Below, in pieces: positions 3,114 through 63,502 of a stretch of DNA of 64,000 nucleotides. Location: sequence record NC_070984.1. One strand, 5' to 3'. The notes below the pieces were generated by a model. The model was given only the letters and a program-made list of their open reading frames with translations. It was not told the DNA's origin and did no database searches. The DNA is from Escherichia phage ES17. Position 1 is the first letter of the stretch, and the number at the start of each line of letters is the position of its first letter. Made by a program: the position numbers and the translations under genes.

Positions 3114-3917
3114 TTGGCTATTGAAACTAATGCGGTAGTAGTTACCGACTTAAACCCACTCTATCCTCGTGATAGAGATTATATCTATGAAGGTGCAGCC
3201 CAGCTGCGCCTAGTTAAGCAAGTATTACAGAACACATTCCCCAACTTAACTGAGCCTATGACTGTAAACTCTGACACACTAGCTGCTATCTCTGACAAGA
3301 TCTCTTTTGCTGGTGACTATATGGATGTTGGTGGTTTGATGATTAAGAATGGTACAGCAGGTACTGGTAATAACGACTTTACCACCAAAGCCCAAATGGA
3401 ATCTTTTATGCTCAACTGGATGCAGAATAAGATTTACAGGGTTGGGTCTTATTACATCACTGAGGAAGATATTAACCCGGGAGATTCTACATCTTTAGGG
3501 TTTGGTATCTGGACACAAGTTACTGGTGTTATCATGGGTGCTGGGGTTGTGACCCCTGATGGGACAGTCCCTAATGCTCAGCGTGTGGAGTTTACTGCTG
3601 GTGCTACAGGTGGTCGTGTTTACAACACAGTTAAGACAGAGAACCTGCCATTGACTACAATCTCTGGTTCAAGTTTTTCTCTTTCTAACTATACACACTC
3701 ACATACTACATCATTTGGACGTGGAGATGCAAGTGGACATAACAGCTCACCTAACTGGTATAATCCGGGGGTTAGTTATTCTGTTGCATCAAGTTCTGAT
3801 ACTCACACCCACACCATTACAGGTGATGCAACATTTGGCTATGATGATGTATCTCGTCAACCTATAAATACGTTACCACCCTTCCGTGCAGCATATATCT
3901 GGAGACGTATCAGTTAA
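3114..3917 (+). CDS. Putative tail fibre / structural protein
   Basis: 267 aa, TTG start, Gly/Ser/Thr-rich, sits in structural gene run. Confidence 0.4.
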   Translation: MAIETNAVVVTDLNPLYPRDRDYIYEGAAQLRLVKQVLQNTFPNLTEPMTVNSDTLAAISDKISFAGDYMDVGGLMIKNGTAGTGNNDFTTKAQMESFMLNWMQNKIYRVGSYYITEEDINPGDSTSLGFGIWTQVTGVIMGAGVVTPDGTVPNAQRVEFTAGATGGRVYNTVKTENLPLTTISGSSFSLSNYTHSHTTSFGRGDASGHNSSPNWYNPGVSYSVASSSDTHTHTITGDATFGYDDVSRQPINTLPPFRAAYIWRRIS

Positions 3918-3926
3918 GGAGGAAGT

Positions 3927-6884
3927 ATGGCTCTTTACCCAATAAAATCTTTGGGTGCGGTTGGTGTTATTGCCGACCAATCTCCTACAGATCTGGCTCC
4001 TAATGCATTTACTAATGCAATTAATGCTCGGTTTGTAGAACAGCGTGTGTTTAAGACGGGGGGCTCTGCCCCTCTTTCTTACGTTGAAAGTGATAAAGAA
4101 ATAAGACCATTATCATTCACTTCAATGCCTTTTGACTACTTCAGTGCTAACAATAGTTTCTTACTGGTAGGTACAGATAAGAGTATTTTTAGATTAAATA
4201 ATGAATCTATGGTTGATGTTAGTCGAAGAGTGGCTACAGTCACCAAAAAAGCAGTATCTTATGTCAAGATAAACCCCGTACTAACAGAGATCGTCCCTAA
4301 AGAAACATCTGTTATTATGAATCTTAATGAAAGCAAGGTTCTCGAGGTATCTCTTCTTCCAGAAGGTGTTGTTACTCCATCCCTTGTGTGGGAGGTTAGT
4401 AATCCCTCCTATGGTTCAATATTAGTTGACCCTGATGATAGTAAGAAAGCTACATTGAGTGTCTTATCTAATGAGGGTAGCTTTACTGTCACTGTCTCTA
4501 ATGAAGATGAATCTGTAACTACCAGTATCTCCGTAAAGGTTGTTGATTCTGATTCTGGTATCTTCCTTAACCGGGACTCTGTTCAACTTCGTAAAGGTGG
4601 AACAACCACACTTACAGCAACAACCAGCAAGACCCCACTAACGTGGACTTCTTCTAACCCGTCCATTATATCTGTGGCGCCTAATGGTGACACTACTACA
4701 GCAATATTAACCGCTCAAGGAGTAGGTAATGCACTGATAACAGTAAGCAATGGGTCTAAAACCTCGGAATGCTCTGTTAGTGTTATCAATCAGATTGACA
4801 GTATATCTTTAAGTCAAACAGATTTACAAATTAACCGTGGGACGTCATATGTCTTATACTCTAGTTTAATTCCATCAAATGCTGCAAATCAGAGAATAAC
4901 TTGGACTTCCTCTAACCCAAATATCGCCACTGTTTCGGGAACAGGTCTTCAAGGAACTGTCTCTGGGTTAACTGCTGGGTTTACAGTTATAACAGCAACT
5001 ACGGAAGAAGGTGAAAGGACCGCCACCTGTAACGTCAGGGTTGAGTTATCAAGTAGGGCCCTTTTTTCTGCTGCATCAGCTCCTTCTGAAGAACCTAGTT
5101 CTACGGATTCAGATATTGACACCTCATCTATGTCAGAGGGCAATGCTTTTTATGACTATTCTATGGTTGATGGTGTTGAAGCCTATTCTATAAATGAAGT
5201 CATGTCTAGGTCAACTCAGCTTGAATCCTTAACTCTTGACATTGTGGATACTGAAATTGATGTTGGAGATGAGTTAGTAATAACTGCAACGGCATTCCCT
5301 GAAGGGGAGTACCTTTATAATTGGGTGGTAGATCAGCCGGGGTATATATCCTCTACTTCCACTACCGACTCTTCCTTTACCTTAACTGCTATTAAGACTG
5401 GCAAAGTGAAGATAACCTGCACTGCTAGTCAAGTAGCTCGTAGAGACTATGAAGCATTTGAGAAGTATCCTTGGTATAATACGATTATCTCTAACTGCGC
5501 AGTATTCACTACTCACTACGAAACCCCTCAAGTAAAAGAGTTTGCCTCTGAGTATTTCACAGATCTTCCGGGGTGGGGTGAGCAGACAATAGTAGATGCT
5601 AATGGGAACCCTTCTGTTGTAAAATATAACTGGAAGTGCGAAAGGATTCGTGCATTTAATAATCGTCTATTTGCTCTTAATATGCGAGAGTCTAATGCAT
5701 CAGGAGTTACTACTCACTACCCTCTTCGACTTCGCTGGTCTAACTATGCTAATGAGAATAAGGCACCTACTTTATGGGATGATTTTGCTTATGATAGATA
5801 TGTGACTTCAGATTTAGCAGCAAATGTTGTAGGTCAAACTGAGGCTCTAGAAAATGGATATGCCGGATACATAGATTTAGCTGACTCAAACGGTAGCTTA
5901 GTCGAAATTCTTCCTCTTAAGGATTATCTATTTATCTATACGGAGTTTGAGACTTACATTGGATCCCCAACTAACAACACATATCAACCTCTAATGTTCA
6001 AGAAGCTCTTCAACGACTCTGGAATCTTAGCACCTGAGTGTGTAGTTGAAGTTGAGAGCGGACATTTCGTGGTCACTCAGAATGATGTTATTCTACACAA
6101 TGGTGCAACCAAGAAGTCTATTGCATCTAACAGGGTCAAGAATATGCTTATCAACGAAGTGTGTTTAGTAAACCCTTTGGCTACTAAAGTTCATCTTCAC
6201 CAAGACAAGAAGGAAGTGTGGATTCTTTATGTAGGACCCGGAGAACCTGCTGGGAGCTTTGCTTGTACGAAAGCCGCTGTATGGAACTATGAGTTTGATA
6301 CGTGGTCTTTCCGTACAATCCCATTCTCTCATTGTATTGGTTTAGTCGATCCTCCTACTTTAGAGAAAGGTCCTACTTGGGTTGATTTCCAAGAGTACAC
6401 TTGGGATGACCCTTCAATCAGTGAACTTGTGTGGAGAAAGGATTCTACTAACTTCCGTCAGAGAGTTACTGTAGTAGGTTCTTGGATGAAAGGTTTTTAC
6501 CAAGTGGACATAGGTCCTTATGACTACTCTTATGATAGGCTGAATGATATTGTTGTCAAAAAGCCCCTAGAGATGAGACTGGAAAGAACTGGTATAGATT
6601 TTGACAACGTAACTAATGAATGGAATCAAAAGCACATAAACCGATTCCGTCCACAAGTAACCGGGTCAGGTACGTACATATTCCAAGCTGGTGGTAGTCA
6701 GTATTCGGATCAAGAGGATAGGCATATTCATAGTGAAAAGTCTTATACAATTGGTGTGGACAGACATGTAGGTGTCCGACTGAACCATCCGTATCTATTC
6801 TATAATGTTATAGATAATGATGTTAACAGTAATGCAGCAATCAATGGTCTAACTATTGAGTTTGCTGTTGGCGGGCGAAGATAA
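3927..6884 (+). CDS. Large structural protein with bacterial Ig-like (Big_2-type) repeats
   Basis: 985 aa; three repeats of the LTWTSSNPSIISV...TAxGxG..ITV type between aa 130-360. Confidence 0.55.
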   Translation: MALYPIKSLGAVGVIADQSPTDLAPNAFTNAINARFVEQRVFKTGGSAPLSYVESDKEIRPLSFTSMPFDYFSANNSFLLVGTDKSIFRLNNESMVDVSRRVATVTKKAVSYVKINPVLTEIVPKETSVIMNLNESKVLEVSLLPEGVVTPSLVWEVSNPSYGSILVDPDDSKKATLSVLSNEGSFTVTVSNEDESVTTSISVKVVDSDSGIFLNRDSVQLRKGGTTTLTATTSKTPLTWTSSNPSIISVAPNGDTTTAILTAQGVGNALITVSNGSKTSECSVSVINQIDSISLSQTDLQINRGTSYVLYSSLIPSNAANQRITWTSSNPNIATVSGTGLQGTVSGLTAGFTVITATTEEGERTATCNVRVELSSRALFSAASAPSEEPSSTDSDIDTSSMSEGNAFYDYSMVDGVEAYSINEVMSRSTQLESLTLDIVDTEIDVGDELVITATAFPEGEYLYNWVVDQPGYISSTSTTDSSFTLTAIKTGKVKITCTASQVARRDYEAFEKYPWYNTIISNCAVFTTHYETPQVKEFASEYFTDLPGWGEQTIVDANGNPSVVKYNWKCERIRAFNNRLFALNMRESNASGVTTHYPLRLRWSNYANENKAPTLWDDFAYDRYVTSDLAANVVGQTEALENGYAGYIDLADSNGSLVEILPLKDYLFIYTEFETYIGSPTNNTYQPLMFKKLFNDSGILAPECVVEVESGHFVVTQNDVILHNGATKKSIASNRVKNMLINEVCLVNPLATKVHLHQDKKEVWILYVGPGEPAGSFACTKAAVWNYEFDTWSFRTIPFSHCIGLVDPPTLEKGPTWVDFQEYTWDDPSISELVWRKDSTNFRQRVTVVGSWMKGFYQVDIGPYDYSYDRLNDIVVKKPLEMRLERTGIDFDNVTNEWNQKHINRFRPQVTGSGTYIFQAGGSQYSDQEDRHIHSEKSYTIGVDRHVGVRLNHPYLFYNVIDNDVNSNAAINGLTIEFAVGGRR

Positions 6885-54491: not shown

Positions 54492-54568
54492 TGGCGCACC
54501 CTACAGGATTCGAACCTGTAACCGACGGATTAGAAATCCGATGTTCTGTCCAATTGAACTAAGGGCGC
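54492..54568 (-). tRNA. tRNA-Arg(UCU): tRNA-Arg (anticodon UCU), CCA encoded
   Basis: Manual cloverleaf: acceptor GCGCCCU/AGGGUGC (one G-U), D stem GUUC/GAAC, anticodon loop UUUCUAA, T arm ACAGG-UUCGAAU-CCUGU, discriminator G + CCA. Confidence 0.85.
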
Positions 54569-59100: not shown

Positions 59101-59133
59101 AAAAGAAAAGGCGCTACCCGTTAAGATAGCGCC
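59101..59133 (-). terminator. Intrinsic terminator
   Basis: Minus-sense GGCGCUA ... UAGCGCC stem + UUUUCUUUU after stop at 59158. Confidence 0.7.
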
Positions 59134-59157
59134 TTATGTTTATTTAAATTGTATTAC

Positions 59158-60066
59158 TTATGCCGCTTGACGTGCCGCCATAATTTCAGCCGCTTTACGC
59201 AATACTTCTTCCTCTTCTGCTTTCGCCGCTTGTTCGCTACGGGTAGCAACCGTTGAAGAGATACGACCGCGCAGACTTTCTAACTTCTCCTGCATAGCTG
59301 CAACAGTCTTTTCCATTTCATCAGCGTATGAATCGAGTGATTCTAATTCCTTGCTTGATGCGTTCATCAGATAATCATCCGAGATCGCTACCGTCGAGGC
59401 CGTGATTTTCTTGATGAGTGAATCAAAGGACTTTTTAACCTTCCCAACTTCTTCACTCAGGGCGATAGTGTTATCGCTGGTTGCGCCGTTGCGCTCATCA
59501 GCCAGTAATTTGGCTTCAATACGGATTGCATTCAAGCGTTCAACCAAAGCATAAATATCCTGATTAAAATCTTCCTTGTTTTTCGCCGGAATTTGCAGGT
59601 GTGCCGCCACGTTGTCATTGCAACCTTTGTAGAAGTTAGGATTATCCACTTCAATTGCACGACCTAATGCAAAGTTTTCGAAAGCATTTGACCAGCGAGC
59701 GCGGTTTTGTTCCATTTTGGTTTTAATTTGCGCTTCTTTCGCATCTTCTTTAGCTTTCGCCTCACCTTCCAGATTAATCCACTTTTTACGACCATTTGCC
59801 GCATCGGTGTTAAACTTGATAGGAGTTAAGAAAGTAATTGCGGTAGCGATAACATCCATATCACGGAAACGTTCAGTTAACAGGAAGTCAACCGCCGCCT
59901 GCAATACATCTAACTTCTTACCGTTGCTACGAAAGTGCTGCAAATGCCCTAACAGGAAGTTAGAAACATCTTGTTTGATCGCCGCGTTATTACTGCGAAT
60001 GTTGTTAGCCAGAGCATTAAAACCGGATTCGTTAACCAGAGTAAAGATTTTAGCCATAATATTCAC
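59158..60066 (-). CDS. First early-operon protein (302 aa, helical / coiled coil)
   Basis: RBS AAAGGTGAATATT-ATG; first gene downstream of promoter/boxA cluster; no recognisable enzymatic motif. Confidence 0.45.
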   Translation of the reverse strand: MNIMAKIFTLVNESGFNALANNIRSNNAAIKQDVSNFLLGHLQHFRSNGKKLDVLQAAVDFLLTERFRDMDVIATAITFLTPIKFNTDAANGRKKWINLEGEAKAKEDAKEAQIKTKMEQNRARWSNAFENFALGRAIEVDNPNFYKGCNDNVAAHLQIPAKNKEDFNQDIYALVERLNAIRIEAKLLADERNGATSDNTIALSEEVGKVKKSFDSLIKKITASTVAISDDYLMNASSKELESLDSYADEMEKTVAAMQEKLESLRGRISSTVATRSEQAAKAEEEEVLRKAAEIMAARQAA

Positions 60067-60880
60067 CTTTCAATTGTAAGGGCGCTATTGCCCCGCTCTC
60101 TATGAGCTTGTTTAAGTCACTATTAACTTAACTATAACCACTCGTTGTTAAGTAGTTATAGGTAAGCGGGGCGGTCTTATCAGGAGTTAACCTTGCCGCC
60201 CCCTTATCCGTGATGTTTCATCTGGTATCTTTAATTAGTCGCTATAAACGAAGCCGACCTGATAGCGATGATCAATCATCACAATAAGGCTATGCGTCCG
60301 ACTCTATTTAATTACATTGCTGTAACCGTCGGCAATATCGTCTACTTTGTTTTCGCTCCCGCTTATCCTTTTGTATCAGCTCTCTATCGCTAGTCATCGC
60401 CCACTACGGGATACTATTGCGAAAGAGTCACTAACCGCCTAATATTCCGGCGTTTTATATCTTTCAGCAGGTTTACTACATAACCCGGCTATGTACTTTC
60501 ATCCTATGATGAATCTCAAGCCGTTCACATCGTAAACGTTCGCATTAAACCTTATTGTTAAATAGCAATTTGCCACTTTTTAACCACTCCCCGCCGCTCT
60601 CAATTGAGCGTTAATTCGTCGGACTTGCCTACCCTGATTAACTTCTTTCACTGTAGCACCGTGTTAGCAATGACCGCCGCTACCCTTAACCGTGGGCGAT
60701 TAGCTCAAGTCTTTGCGTGTACTCAATGAATCCGTTTATCAATGGTGACGTTTCCAGTAAGGGAATGTAAAACTGTTTACCCTGATAATTTAGGGAGTTT
60801 TACGCCGTTTTATCTGGTATGCTTTCCGATGGTTATTATCATCAAGCATATTCAACCGATATAGGAGAATGTTTAAATTA

Positions 60881-60890
60881 TTAAAGAGCG
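60881..60890 (-). promoter_or_regulatory. boxA-like element A (transcript CCGCUCUUUAAUAAUUUA)
   Basis: Matches rrn boxA UGCUCUUUAACAAUUUA at 15/17; preceded in transcript by hairpin AGUGUG-AGAAAG-CACACU. Confidence 0.55.
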
Positions 60891-60980
60891 GTAAATCTAT
60901 CAGTGTGCTTTCTCACACTATGCAACTGTTAGCCGTTGTTACGCTTTTCACTGAAGCGATGATTTGCTTAGTGAGTGCTC

Positions 60981-61009
60981 ATTATGAATCATGTTGTTTT
61001 CGCTGTCAA
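60981..61009 (-). promoter_or_regulatory. Sigma70-like early promoter P2
   Basis: Minus-sense TTGACA - 17 nt - CATAAT. Confidence 0.55.
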
Positions 61010-61114
61010 CCGCTTTTTAATCTTTTTTCGTCGTTCCCGCTATTGGGAGGATATATCAATCAGCTTTGTTTGATTGAAGATTAAGCGGTGAGGCTTAACT
61101 TATGATTCATATTG

Positions 61115-61124
61115 TTAAAGAGCG
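61115..61124 (-). promoter_or_regulatory. boxA-like element B (transcript CGCUCUUUAACAAU)
   Basis: 13-nt identity with rrn boxA core GCTCTTTAACAAT. Confidence 0.55.
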
Positions 61125-61391
61125 TTTTTAGCCTTTTATAGTGTCTGCTAATCACTGCATCATTGAAGGCTTACTGATTCATTAACAGGACGCCTAACCC
61201 TGAACTACTCGCTGCACTATGTGCCACCTTTCCCGCGATACGTTGATTTGGGAACTTGTTAGCGGTGTATCTGCTAACTTGTGGTTAGTATGGACTACTT
61301 TAACCACGTTTGCAACTCTTTTTATCATCTTCTTTTAATTCCTTTCCCTTATCTCGCGTGAATCTATGCGAAAGGGCAAGATGATAAGTTT

Positions 61392-61401
61392 TTAAAGAGC
61401 G
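61392..61401 (-). promoter_or_regulatory. boxA-like element C (transcript CCGCUCUUUAAAAACUUAUCA)
   Basis: About 30 nt downstream of P1; preceded by GUCA-GCGA-UGAC hairpin. Confidence 0.5.
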
Positions 61402-61431
61402 GGATTTTTTAAGTCATCGCTGACTATGCTC

Positions 61432-61460
61432 ACTATATGTCAGGCTGTTTTCGGTGTCAA
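61432..61460 (-). promoter_or_regulatory. Sigma70-like early promoter P1
   Basis: Minus-sense TTGACA - 17 nt - TATAGT. Confidence 0.6.
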
Positions 61461-61499
61461 TACTCTTTTTGAGAATATTTTCACTTTCTAGCCTGATTT

Positions 61500-61509
61500 T
61501 TAAAGAGCG
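61500..61509 (-). promoter_or_regulatory. boxA-like element D (transcript CCGCUCUUUAAAAAUCAG)
   Basis: Immediately preceded by boxB-like hairpin GGCAA-GAAA-UUGCC; about 45 nt downstream of P3. Confidence 0.55.
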
Positions 61510-61556
61510 GGGCAATTTCTTGCCTTGTATGTTTTACATCGTACCCGATGAAATGA

Positions 61557-61584
61557 AGTATACGCTAATCAGATGAGGTTGCAA
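61557..61584 (-). promoter_or_regulatory. Sigma70-like early promoter P3
   Basis: Minus-sense TTGCAA - 16 nt - TATACT. Confidence 0.5.
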
Positions 61585-61843
61585 TAGGGTAAAGCAAATT
61601 ATTTTAAACTTTTTCACTATAGGAAGGTAAAAGAGCAGGCGCACGCGATACATCATAGAAAATGGCTTGTAAAGCGATATTTAGCGGCCTAAAACGCATC
61701 ACAACGAGCTAAAAGGGAGTAAGGCATACAATCACCTCATAAAAGAGAAAAGCCTCACTAGGAGGCTTACAGGAAGGATTAGAGAATCAGATAAATTATG
61801 ACCATAGGCATGACTACGGCACAATACAGGAGAAAGATTAAGC

Positions 61844-62215
61844 CTATGGATTTACACATTGACCGTTACCGGATGCCATTTCATTCATGGACTCATCAAA
61901 GAGCGTCAACGATGAGCGCATCAAGTGATCTACCGTGATTTGCTTACCAGTGGTTTCATTTACCAGTTGAATAGTTTTATCGTATGATTGTACATGTTCG
62001 AAATCATTCACATGTAAAATAATAACTTTAGGTGACTTTTTACCAGTTTCGTAATTCTCTACGAGATAGGTACACTGTAAACCGTCAACCGTATCAGGGG
62101 AGAATGTTGCAGCCTTTACACTACCCATATCCGATAGCAGGACACCTAACAGGAGAACAACCAGAAAGAAGCCTACAACCGTTTTAACGACGAATTTAAT
62201 AAACCACATAGCCAA
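61844..62215 (-). CDS. Membrane-anchored small protein
   Basis: 123 aa; N-terminal TM VVGFFLVVLLLGVLL. Confidence 0.4.
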   Translation of the reverse strand: MAMWFIKFVVKTVVGFFLVVLLLGVLLSDMGSVKAATFSPDTVDGLQCTYLVENYETGKKSPKVIILHVNDFEHVQSYDKTIQLVNETTGKQITVDHLMRSSLTLFDESMNEMASGNGQCVNP

Positions 62216-62402: not shown

Positions 62403-62678
62403 CTATTCATCGTTGCTATTCTCGCCAAAAAATGCTACGCTAATCTGTTCCACTTCTTCCAGCGACAGGAGAATCCCGCGTTGGGCTAAATACTTCCCAA
62501 CGGTTATATAATCTTGCACTAAACAGACAATAGGAAAGCGTATATTTTGAATCTCACCTTTGGAAAGAAAAGACAAATATCCAACGTCGATTGATTCATC
62601 AAAGGACAATGTAACGCCACCGTAATTATGCGTATCAATTAACGCAATAGTTTCATTTCCCATTGGTATCATCCCCAA
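62403..62678 (-). CDS. Hypothetical protein
   Basis: 91 aa track ORF. Confidence 0.35.
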   Translation of the reverse strand: MGMIPMGNETIALIDTHNYGGVTLSFDESIDVGYLSFLSKGEIQNIRFPIVCLVQDYITVGKYLAQRGILLSLEEVEQISVAFFGENSNDE

Positions 62679-62919
62679 TCAGACCATGATTAAGCAGGTT
62701 AGCCAGCGACAAATCACCGTCAATATAGATTGATCTGAAATCATCGCGGGTAATTTCGAAATCAGCAAAGGCTAGCCAATCTTTAAGAGGCTGATATTCC
62801 ATCCTGCAAAAAGTGATAACAGGCAAGATTATCTGACCATCAAGTGTATTAAACAGGATAGAGCTTCCACCAACAAAACAAGAAAAGCCATTAGATAACT
62901 TAATTTCTTTGATAGCCAT
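62653..62919 (-). CDS. Hypothetical protein
   Basis: 88 aa track ORF, 26-nt overlap with next. Confidence 0.35.
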   Translation of the reverse strand: MAIKEIKLSNGFSCFVGGSSILFNTLDGQIILPVITFCRMEYQPLKDWLAFADFEITRDDFRSIYIDGDLSLANLLNHGLIGDDTNGK

Positions 62920-62944: not shown

Positions 62945-63436
62945 TTACTTACTAGCCTTAATGCAGTTGGCTAAATTAACGTGAACGGTATAAACAGCGT
63001 TATCAGCGTTATTGTAAATAGTCGTGGCGATCATCGACTCATTGATCGGGCCATAGCTCACAAGATTAGTAACGGCTTTAACGTCTTCATAACGTCGTAC
63101 AGTGCCATAAGTAACCATATCCGCATCGTTATCGGTACGCTTAAGCACTAAATCACTGTTAGGATGATTGTCTAGTGTCTTAGACTGAAAGAGAACGCCA
63201 TCATTAGTAACGTTGCTAAATTTCATCTTTAGCACGATATTATTGCTGTCACTATCCGCACCGTTGCAAATCATCCAACCCTTATTGATGGAACTAGAGA
63301 AGACACTAGCCGCATCAGTTGCAGGAGCAGGACTAGCGATAGCCTTATCAGAAAGAGATGTGACCAGTGCACTAACACCAATCGCTGCAACTAGTGCATA
63401 ACTTGCCAGATTAACTACCTGCATTGCTTTAGCCAT
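62945..63436 (-). CDS. Secreted protein with signal peptide
   Basis: 163 aa; MAKAMQVVNLASYALVAAIGVSALVTSLS; RBS AAGGAATAACGAA; sigma70-like promoter 39 nt upstream. Confidence 0.45.
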   Translation of the reverse strand: MAKAMQVVNLASYALVAAIGVSALVTSLSDKAIASPAPATDAASVFSSSINKGWMICNGADSDSNNIVLKMKFSNVTNDGVLFQSKTLDNHPNSDLVLKRTDNDADMVTYGTVRRYEDVKAVTNLVSYGPINESMIATTIYNNADNAVYTVHVNLANCIKASK

Positions 63437-63474: not shown

Positions 63475-63502
63475 ACTATATAATAAAGGAAAAGACTGTC
63501 AA
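63475..63502 (-). promoter_or_regulatory. Sigma70-like promoter
   Basis: Minus-sense TTGACA - 16 nt - TATAGT. Confidence 0.55.

Follow-up and report, generated by a model that had tools for sequence, protein, structure and literature searches.

Promoter-coupled boxA motifs of the rrn type precede a conserved, predicted structured leader RNA in the putative early region of Escherichia phage ES17

Within the 64,000-nucleotide stretch of Escherichia phage ES17 analysed here (NC_070984.1; hereafter the window) there is a gap of ~1.8 kb without annotated genes, in which a short motif resembling the boxA element of ribosomal RNA (rRNA) operons is repeated downstream of predicted promoters. The gap is flanked by the minus-strand homologues of phiEco32 genes 125 and 124 and is, by homology to related phages, an early, sigma70-transcribed region. 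The ES17 region is 100% identical to that of Escherichia phages myPSH2311 and myPSH1131, and the 96 phage records that match it all belong to Kuravirus-like podoviruses of E. coli and Shigella (subfamily Gordonclarkvirinae, prototype phiEco32). A first-pass annotation of this DNA had described the surroundings of the motif as otherwise non-coding; this holds for gene-strand open reading frames (ORFs) of at least 45 amino acids, of which the gap contains none, but three ORFs of 33-44 amino acids overlap the promoters and boxA copies. All promoters, boxA copies, hairpins and terminators given below by their window coordinates lie on the minus strand.

The 10-mer CGCTCTTTAA has exactly four matches in the window, all on the minus strand and spread over 629 bp, in agreement with the earlier count of four in the gene sense within ~630 bp. 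Each copy fits the gamma-proteobacterial boxA consensus GYTCTTTAANA (Baniulyte et al., PMC5725501), for which 0.52 matches would be expected; none of 100 shuffles reached the observed four. Copy A (10-mer 60881-60890, element 60879..60890) reads CGCTCTTTAATA(ATTTA), copy B (61115-61124, element 61113..61124) reads CGCTCTTTAACA(AT), and copies C (61392-61401, element 61390..61401) and D (61500-61509, element 61498..61509) both read CGCTCTTTAAAA. When we compared these with an actual E. coli rrn operon, the proposed likeness of copies B and A to the rrn leader was confirmed: copy A (CGCTCTTTAATAATTTA) and copy B (CGCTCTTTAACAAT) resemble the leader boxA (TGCTCTTTAACAATTTATCA, followed by boxC, GTGTGGG), and copy B is identical to it across GCTCTTTAACAAT. 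Copies C and D (GCTCTTTAAAAA followed by C/T) resemble instead the boxA of the 16S-23S spacer (GCTCTTTAAAAATC); the spacer of the compared operon reads TTTGCTCTTTAAAAATCTGG, and copy D is identical to the E. coli spacer boxA over 14 nucleotides (nt). At positions 8-9 all four copies are of the rrn type (GCUCUUUA; each copy reads GCTCTTTAA) and not of the lambda type (GCUCUUA), which has UUA where the rrn type has UUUA, differs at positions 8 and 9, and binds NusB-S10 more weakly (PMC3177189). We also note that GCTCTTTAAAAATCAGGCTAGAAAGTGAAAAT, on the 3' side of copy D (61498-61467), matches the E. coli 16S-23S spacer boxA together with the flank on its 3' side (L020 4069-4099) at 26/32 aligned positions, a likeness without statistical significance outside the core (E = 0.45, small database).

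Every copy lies downstream of a predicted promoter in the transcribed sense, at a distance of 24-165 nt. The first-pass annotation had placed three sigma70-like promoters upstream of copies C, A and D, and a scan recovered them all: TTGACA-17-TATAGT at 61432..61460 (11/12), TTGACA-17-CATAAT at 60981..61009 (11/12), and the promoter-like TTGCAA-16-TATACT at 61557..61584 (9/12), the first two with A-rich upstream elements. Their predicted starts precede copy C by ~24 nt, copy A by ~84 nt and copy D by ~42 nt. A weak promoter-like sequence, TTGCAA-17-CATACT (61287..61315), precedes copy B by ~165 nt; its homologue in Bas93 is a strong promoter (TTGACA-17-CATACT, 10/12, boxA at +13), and six other relatives have a TTGACA-16-TAGAAT promoter at a similar place, with boxA at +17 in five of the six. 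Just before this weak promoter, and after copy C, is an inverted repeat (61310-61390, minus strand: cttatcatcttgccctttc ... gggaaagg ... aagatgataa) that on the plus strand forms a hairpin followed by TTTTT. The promoter cluster is not new, because the SU10 paper reports three sigma70 promoters in this spacer, "like phiEco32", and its S2 table includes homologues of the 61460 and 61009 promoters (SU10 early promoters 73996 and 73511). A comparator is the far-right early promoter, TTGACA-16-TATAGT (63475..63502), which feeds a translated gene through a leader of ~32 nt ending at the ATG at 63436: this leader lacks a boxA, and boxA therefore appears where the transcript is untranslated.

To place these observations in a comparative frame, we examined the gap in 14 relatives spanning Kuravirus, Nieuwekanaalvirus and Suseptimavirus. 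Each has three to five consensus boxA copies, and over the 15 phages and three genera all 64 copies in the gaps are on the gene strand, with none on the other. The copies represent 48 distinct contexts in which the motif is invariant while the upstream flanks are unrelated and have been replaced many times. Positions outside the search pattern are also rrn-like, with C at -1, A at +11 (47/48) and T at +12 (39/48); copy A and its surroundings are invariant in 15/15 phages. A simple scan of the gene strand of the gaps with a threshold of at least 10/12 yielded 44 promoters, of which 43 have a boxA 13-150 nt downstream of the predicted start; the promoter-to-boxA leader cassettes are not mutually homologous. 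Some relatives have a further boxA for which no separate promoter is obvious, as for the copy in the rrn spacer; the additional boxA of TH34 is of this rrn-spacer-like kind. Gaps of the Suseptimavirus type (SU7 3598-3940 and TH34 3990-4300, both minus strand) also have an extra module in which a weak promoter (TTGCAA-17-TATATT), a hairpin, a boxA, a spacer of ~55 nt, a ribosome-binding site and a 66-amino-acid ORF (SU7 gp104) follow one another.

Most copies are preceded by a small hairpin. Directly before copy D (61511..61524, ending 1 nt before the boxA) is GGCAA-GAAA-UUGCC, with a GNRA loop and a folding energy of -6.8 kcal/mol, and before copy C (61412..61425) is (A)GUCA-GCGA-UGAC(U), also with a GNRA loop, of which phiEco32 and 4E8 have a covarying UUCA/UGAA version. 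The hairpin before copy A (60901..60920; RNAalifold helix 3) has the stem UAGUGUG/CACACUG and the loop AGAAAG, with compensatory changes in 3/6 stem pairs across relatives. The earlier claim that a hairpin precedes each boxA, in the boxB-boxA order of rrn leaders, thus stands for copies D, C and A, but the hairpin upstream of copy B is weak (-2.9 kcal/mol) and the boxC of the rrn arrangement is missing. Over 42 contexts, the upstream hairpins have a mean minimum free energy of -5.9 vs -4.2 kcal/mol (Mann-Whitney p = 8e-6). The longer promoter-to-boxA cassettes (window ~61128-61157; L001 ~3770-3830; TH34 ~3640-3680; all minus strand) share a small recurring element, in which (G)UAAAAGGCU comes after a hairpin around GAUUAGCA whose stems covary (GGUGA/UCACG, GAUGA/UCAUG).

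Downstream of copy A, the ~820 nt that extend to the start of the gp124 homologue (60058..60877, minus strand) are predicted from alignment, RNAalifold and an ORF scan to form a conserved, multi-domain leader RNA with long-range helices. Structured RNAs of this size are rare. The leader contains no gene-strand ORF of at least 30 amino acids, its length is nearly constant among relatives, and its nucleotide identity (75-94%) compares with 76-95% for the adjacent gene and 60-92% for the mosaic promoter region upstream. RNAalifold predicted 237-270 pairs, with standard pairs in 98.3% of the pair cells. Changes on both sides occur in 82 pairs, against 5-14 in controls with partners slid by 1-3 columns, and the covariation score of 0.265 compares with 0.03-0.07 for the slid controls; none of 500 shuffles reached the observed values. 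In the gene sense the fold has 381 G-U cells and 28 A-C cells, and the mirror image shows the reverse. This assigns the fold to the transcribed strand and so favours an RNA over a DNA cruciform.

The best leader complement to boxA A (60881-60890) is AUAGAGAGCGG (60093..60103, minus strand; RNAalifold helix 5), ~25 nt before the Shine-Dalgarno sequence of the gp124 homologue. The duplex energy is -16.4 kcal/mol vs -11.4 +/- 1.5 kcal/mol for shuffles, 0.3% of which are as good. This helix is predicted to close the whole RNA in the manner of a leader-trailer helix; as both of its sides are invariant, it is without covariation support, and a local hairpin competes with it, while the pairing is weakened in NJ01 and Bas93. 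Inside the structured RNA, at 60556-60566 (minus strand), is GCTATTTAACA(AT), a boxA with C4 changed to A that is invariant in 15/15 phages and forms part of predicted helices 19 and 20. As Baniulyte et al. (PMC5725501) used C4A as their null mutation, this site probably does not function as a boxA.

A search of Rfam 15 gave no match at E<=1 over 58-64 kb, and at E<=10 over 60.0-61.7 kb gave only snoRNA-type hits at chance level. A core-motif scan and a protein-guided search of IMG/VR detected the leader RNA only in Kuravirus-like contigs, with four other pattern hits attributable to chance, such that it has so far been found only in Gordonclarkvirinae. Several other identities for the leader were considered and rejected: a replication origin, since GC skew merely follows gene orientation; a CsrB-like sponge, since GGA is not enriched (10 vs 15.8 expected); and a small conserved ORF after copy A, whose start codon is seen on inspection of the alignment to be lost in TH42 and Bas88. 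A published prophage small RNA, svsR, is unrelated.

The first gene after the leader is the homologue of phiEco32 gp124 (59158..60057, minus strand; 299 amino acids), assigned by homology. Its likely start is the ATG at 60057 (MAKIF), as annotated in relatives, with the Shine-Dalgarno sequence AAAGGTGA at 60069-60062; a mechanical ORF call had placed the start at the GTG at 60066 (MNIMAKIF), which we rejected since relatives use the ATG with its proper Shine-Dalgarno sequence. Neither this protein nor its neighbours have an informative Pfam or PHROG match, and gp124 homologues are confined to the same 96 phage records. A strong intrinsic terminator with a 12-bp stem and a T-run (59108..59135), annotated in 4E8 and SU7, is located directly 3' of the gene. 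The first-pass annotation counted at least ten intrinsic terminators downstream; our scan of 44-60 kb on the minus strand returned 17 terminator-like sites, but only ~5 of these are convincing (59135, 57807, 57722, 55304 and 50650). Few strong sigma70 promoters are found beyond the terminator of the gp124 homologue. The only transfer RNA (tRNA) gene in the window, for tRNA-Arg (54492-54568), is far downstream of the boxA region.

At the gap's opposite end, a terminator-like hairpin, AAGCCTCCTAGTGAGGCTT followed by a T-run (61750..61768), was detected by the scan and is annotated at the same place in SU10, 4E8 and SU7; it ends the upstream transcription unit, which comprises the genes expressed from the far-right promoter. 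Two early proteins upstream, of 123 amino acids (61847-62215, minus strand) and 88 amino acids (62656-62919, minus strand), have the PHROG labels "terminase" and "polymerase", and these names are copied in several GenBank records. The proteins are very small and have no Pfam support for the names, which look like propagated mis-annotations.

The consensus match, the 64/64 strand bias, the turnover of the flanks around an invariant motif, the coupling to promoters and the absence from the leader of a translated gene together give strong support, at the level of sequence comparison, to the notion that early sigma70 transcripts carry the motifs as boxA RNA elements of the rrn type. Our preferred explanation, which we hold with moderate confidence, is that the copies are loading sites for NusB-S10 that would protect long untranslated early transcripts from termination and may aid their folding. 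Host sigma70 polymerase would start at the tandem early promoters, and the nascent RNA would expose cGCUCUUUAAnAAU within 13-150 nt, usually right after a small hairpin. Binding of NusB-S10 to boxA would then lead, with NusA, NusG, SuhB and possibly S4, to an rrn-like polymerase complex that is resistant to termination and acts as an RNA chaperone. Its presumed purpose would be to carry transcription across 0.9-1.5 kb of RNA that is never translated, including the ~820-nt leader, and on through the gp124-homologue gene and possibly the terminators downstream; Rho would otherwise tend to truncate such RNA, and the complex may help the large RNA fold as it is transcribed, as for rRNA.

Such loading of Nus factors on early complexes is what the parallel with the layout of rRNA operons and the known biology of boxA and Rho lead us to infer. 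Rho terminates untranslated RNA, and boxA protects the long untranslated transcripts of CRISPR arrays from it (PMC7665894). With SuhB, the rrn complex suppresses termination in vitro, whether Rho-dependent or intrinsic (PMC6614801). It is also viewed as a chaperone of RNA. The earlier proposal, that early transcripts recruit host Nus factors for termination-resistant transcription, hence gains comparative support in so far as the elements are of the rrn type, but Nus binding is putative, and read-through of intrinsic terminators is the less certain part. The structured-RNA context, which the first-pass annotation did not note, points to Rho protection and folding, as in rRNA and CRISPR arrays, no less than to passage through intrinsic terminators. 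Such passage is conceivable, since an rrn complex can reduce intrinsic termination in vitro (PMC6614801), and with terminators downstream and few strong sigma70 promoters beyond them, some read-through may be needed, as had been proposed, although this is the less secure part of the model.

A number of observations weigh against this explanation. A boxC (GU-rich UGUGUGGG; in E. coli ...CAGACAATCTGTGTGGGCAC) follows none of the four copies. By partition-function folding, the mean probability that boxA is unpaired is 0.56, barely above the background of 0.48 for random 11-mers (p = 0.003), and its 5' GCUC is often predicted to be paired. The leader has more G than C and few rut-like windows, such that its Rho sensitivity is not evident from composition, and the early (right) end of the distantly related Salmonella phage 7-11 has no boxA. 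Nus factors are reported not to be strictly required for blocking Rho at rRNA loci, and a boxA may also favour termination or act as a repressor of translation (Baniulyte et al., PMC5725501). The literature on phiEco32, Kuravirus and Gordonclarkvirinae that we covered, whose scope did not extend to the primary phiEco32 papers (PMC3275717, PMC2587145), makes no mention of boxA, Nus factors or a non-coding RNA at this place; neither the boxA array nor the structured leader RNA appears to have been described before. Lastly, sequence identity, strand, conservation, promoter coupling and RNA structure are what was observed, and Nus binding, antitermination and chaperoning are deduced from them.

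Other explanations deserve consideration. The hairpin-boxA units could be nut-like sites for a phage-encoded antiterminator, an analogue of lambda N, in which case boxA would not suffice and an early phage protein would be needed. Lambdoid phages are the classical phage users of boxA, most copies do have a small hairpin before them, and two of these hairpins have GNRA loops similar to the folded loop of lambda boxB. However, the order of hairpin and then boxA is the reverse of that in lambda nut, and stems and loops differ so widely between copies and lineages that a single peptide is unlikely to recognise them all. Some copies, at 13-17 nt from the start, leave no room for a hairpin, and the high-affinity rrn-type boxA works without N. 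The earlier statement that no lambda N-like protein is involved agrees with the failure of a scan of the early region to find any small Arg-rich ORF, although that scan was crude. We consider a dedicated antiterminator of this kind very unlikely.

We are just as reluctant to accept that the copies are decoys, by which abundant early RNAs with one to four boxA elements would titrate NusB-S10 (and SuhB), starve host rRNA transcription of these factors and aid host shut-off. There are several copies per transcript, more than action in cis strictly requires; they are of the high-affinity rrn type and are driven by strong promoters with UP-like elements, and some relatives have a copy without an obvious promoter of its own. 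Against this, nearly every copy comes just after its own promoter, as expected for loading in cis, the promoter of the translated gene has no boxA, and internal copies are also known from rrn operons, in the form of the spacer boxA. A decoy role could nonetheless coexist with the loading of NusB-S10 in cis.

A third possibility is that the copies act negatively, as in suhB or hisG, with Nus factors at boxA repressing translation of an ORF downstream or promoting Rho termination, and so serve as attenuators that limit or time early expression. It is true that boxA represses suhB even with inserts of up to 100 nt, and the boxA of the Suseptimavirus-type module lies ~55 nt upstream of the ribosome-binding site of the 66-amino-acid ORF. 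In the window, however, every copy is more than ~100 nt away from any credible start codon, with ~820 nt separating copy A from the gene that follows, and a repressive element after every strong early promoter seems counter-productive, making this role, in our opinion, decidedly improbable. We attach similarly little probability to a site that works at the level of DNA, whether for a host or phage DNA-binding protein or as a junction for recombination between mosaic promoter cassettes, with the likeness to boxA being coincidental. The copies do mark mosaic junctions, at which upstream flanks are swapped and the motif and its 3' flank are kept, and the first-pass annotation had itself named a DNA site for another factor as a possible refutation of its proposal. 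Such a site would not readily account for the complete strand bias (64:0), for promoter distances that vary over 13-150 nt, or for a perfect match to the consensus of an RNA element that extends into the AAU following boxA in rrn operons; nor need a recombination junction have exactly the sequence of boxA. Finally, a chance repeat or a functionless relic of segmental duplication, suggested by the duplication and shuffling of promoter modules and by the GCTCTTTAAAAATCAGGCTAGAAAGTGA shared by two copies in NJ01 and Bas93, is effectively refuted by the shuffles (0/100 reach four copies) and by the invariance of the motif in 48 contexts and three genera while its flanks diverge.

If the copies do load NusB-S10, a bolder extension may be entertained, which we offer tentatively and think somewhat doubtful: that the early region of Kuravirus-group phages mimics an rRNA operon, with strong sigma70 promoters in tandem and boxA of the rrn type recruiting the host complex for antitermination and chaperoning to make and fold an abundant ~820-nt RNA of a new class with a function of its own, and that boxA placed behind sigma70 promoters and ahead of long untranslated RNA is a general phage strategy. 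Were this true, the RNA would be more than a 5' untranslated region (UTR), with a role, for example, in host take-over, in anti-defence or in a ribonucleoprotein with gp124. We scanned IMG/VR for two consensus boxA copies 90-120 nt apart and obtained 51 stretches, of which ~20 were rejected as tandem-repeat arrays. One contig (L031 9380-9640, plus strand) has three tandem promoters with boxA ~5-20 nt after each, followed by non-coding repeats; another (L052 5850-6040, minus strand) has two promoter-boxA units, one with a GUCA-GAGA-UGAC hairpin; in a 180-kb contig (L072 10190-10461, plus strand), a cluster of 24 tRNA genes contains a 12/12 promoter with two boxA copies after it; and the uncultivated contig L038 also repeats the sigma70 promoter-boxA design. 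No isolate relatives were found for the uncultivated contigs L031 and L052. These cases hint at a wider use of boxA by phages ahead of untranslated RNA units; promoter enrichment near boxA pairs was not significant across the IMG/VR contigs, and the wider design is therefore a lead and not a result.

Antitermination by boxA and Nus factors is textbook knowledge for rRNA operons and for lambdoid phages that carry N. A virulent phage with its own sigma factor that copies the high-affinity rrn boxA of its host would, if the explanation is correct, represent an N-independent takeover of the machinery of rRNA transcription. The authors of the phage 7-11 study wrote that the antitermination strategy "remains to be defined" (PMC8948821), and the boxA elements provide a concrete candidate for it in the Kuravirus group, which is reported to be abundant, in therapeutic use, little studied and strongly resistant to those defence systems that were tested. 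The isolates Bas86-94 of the BASEL collection plate on E. coli K-12, such that experiments with host mutants, bicyclomycin and boxA mutants are feasible.

Among known systems, the closest counterpart is the E. coli rrn boxA of the leader and the 16S-23S spacer, on which a complex of NusA, NusB, NusE, NusG, SuhB and S4 assembles, and with which the phage copies share the core GCUCUUUAA(C/A)AAU. In both arrangements the sigma70 promoters are strong, stand in tandem and have A-rich upstream elements, boxA has a hairpin ahead of it and occurs in additional internal copies, and a long untranslated structured RNA follows; the predicted closing helix is reminiscent of the leader-trailer helices of rRNA. 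They differ in that ES17 is a virulent phage, position 1 of the phage motif is C and not U, boxC is absent, and the copies number up to four or five, every one linked to its own promoter; moreover, the phage RNA is not rRNA (it has no Rfam match) and is followed by a protein gene, and Nus binding and function are putative in the phage. With lambda nutL and nutR the phage elements share their position on early transcripts, a C at position 1, a stem-loop nearby and, presumably, recruitment of NusB-S10. However, lambda boxA, of the CGCUCUUA type, is weaker and depends on N, which binds boxB downstream of it, whereas the Kuravirus boxA is of the rrn type, its hairpin is upstream and variable, an N-like protein was not found in a crude scan, and the phage, a virulent one, has a sigma factor of its own.

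The boxA of CRISPR arrays in Salmonella and many phyla (Stringer et al. 2020, PMC7665894) is likewise near the start of an unusually long untranslated transcript, but it is a single copy at a cellular locus for which protection from Rho was shown experimentally, in contrast to the several phage copies with a putative function. The boxA of the suhB 5' UTR and related genes (PMC5725501) conforms to the same consensus, GYTCTTTAANA, but is repressive and within ~50 nt of the start codon, whereas the window copies are far from start codons. A suhB-like layout is seen only in the Suseptimavirus-type module. As for the RNA itself, GOLLD, ROOL and OLE are large structured non-coding RNAs of bacteria and phages, and the leader resembles them in its length of several hundred nucleotides, its multiple domains, its heavy covariation and its carriage by phages; unlike them, it matches no Rfam family, is located in a coliphage early leader directly upstream of a gene and is so far confined to Gordonclarkvirinae. 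Relative to the known boxA/Nus systems, then, what sets this locus apart is that, in a virulent phage in which no N protein was found, and with no boxC, several promoter-coupled boxA copies lie upstream of a large, apparently non-coding RNA.

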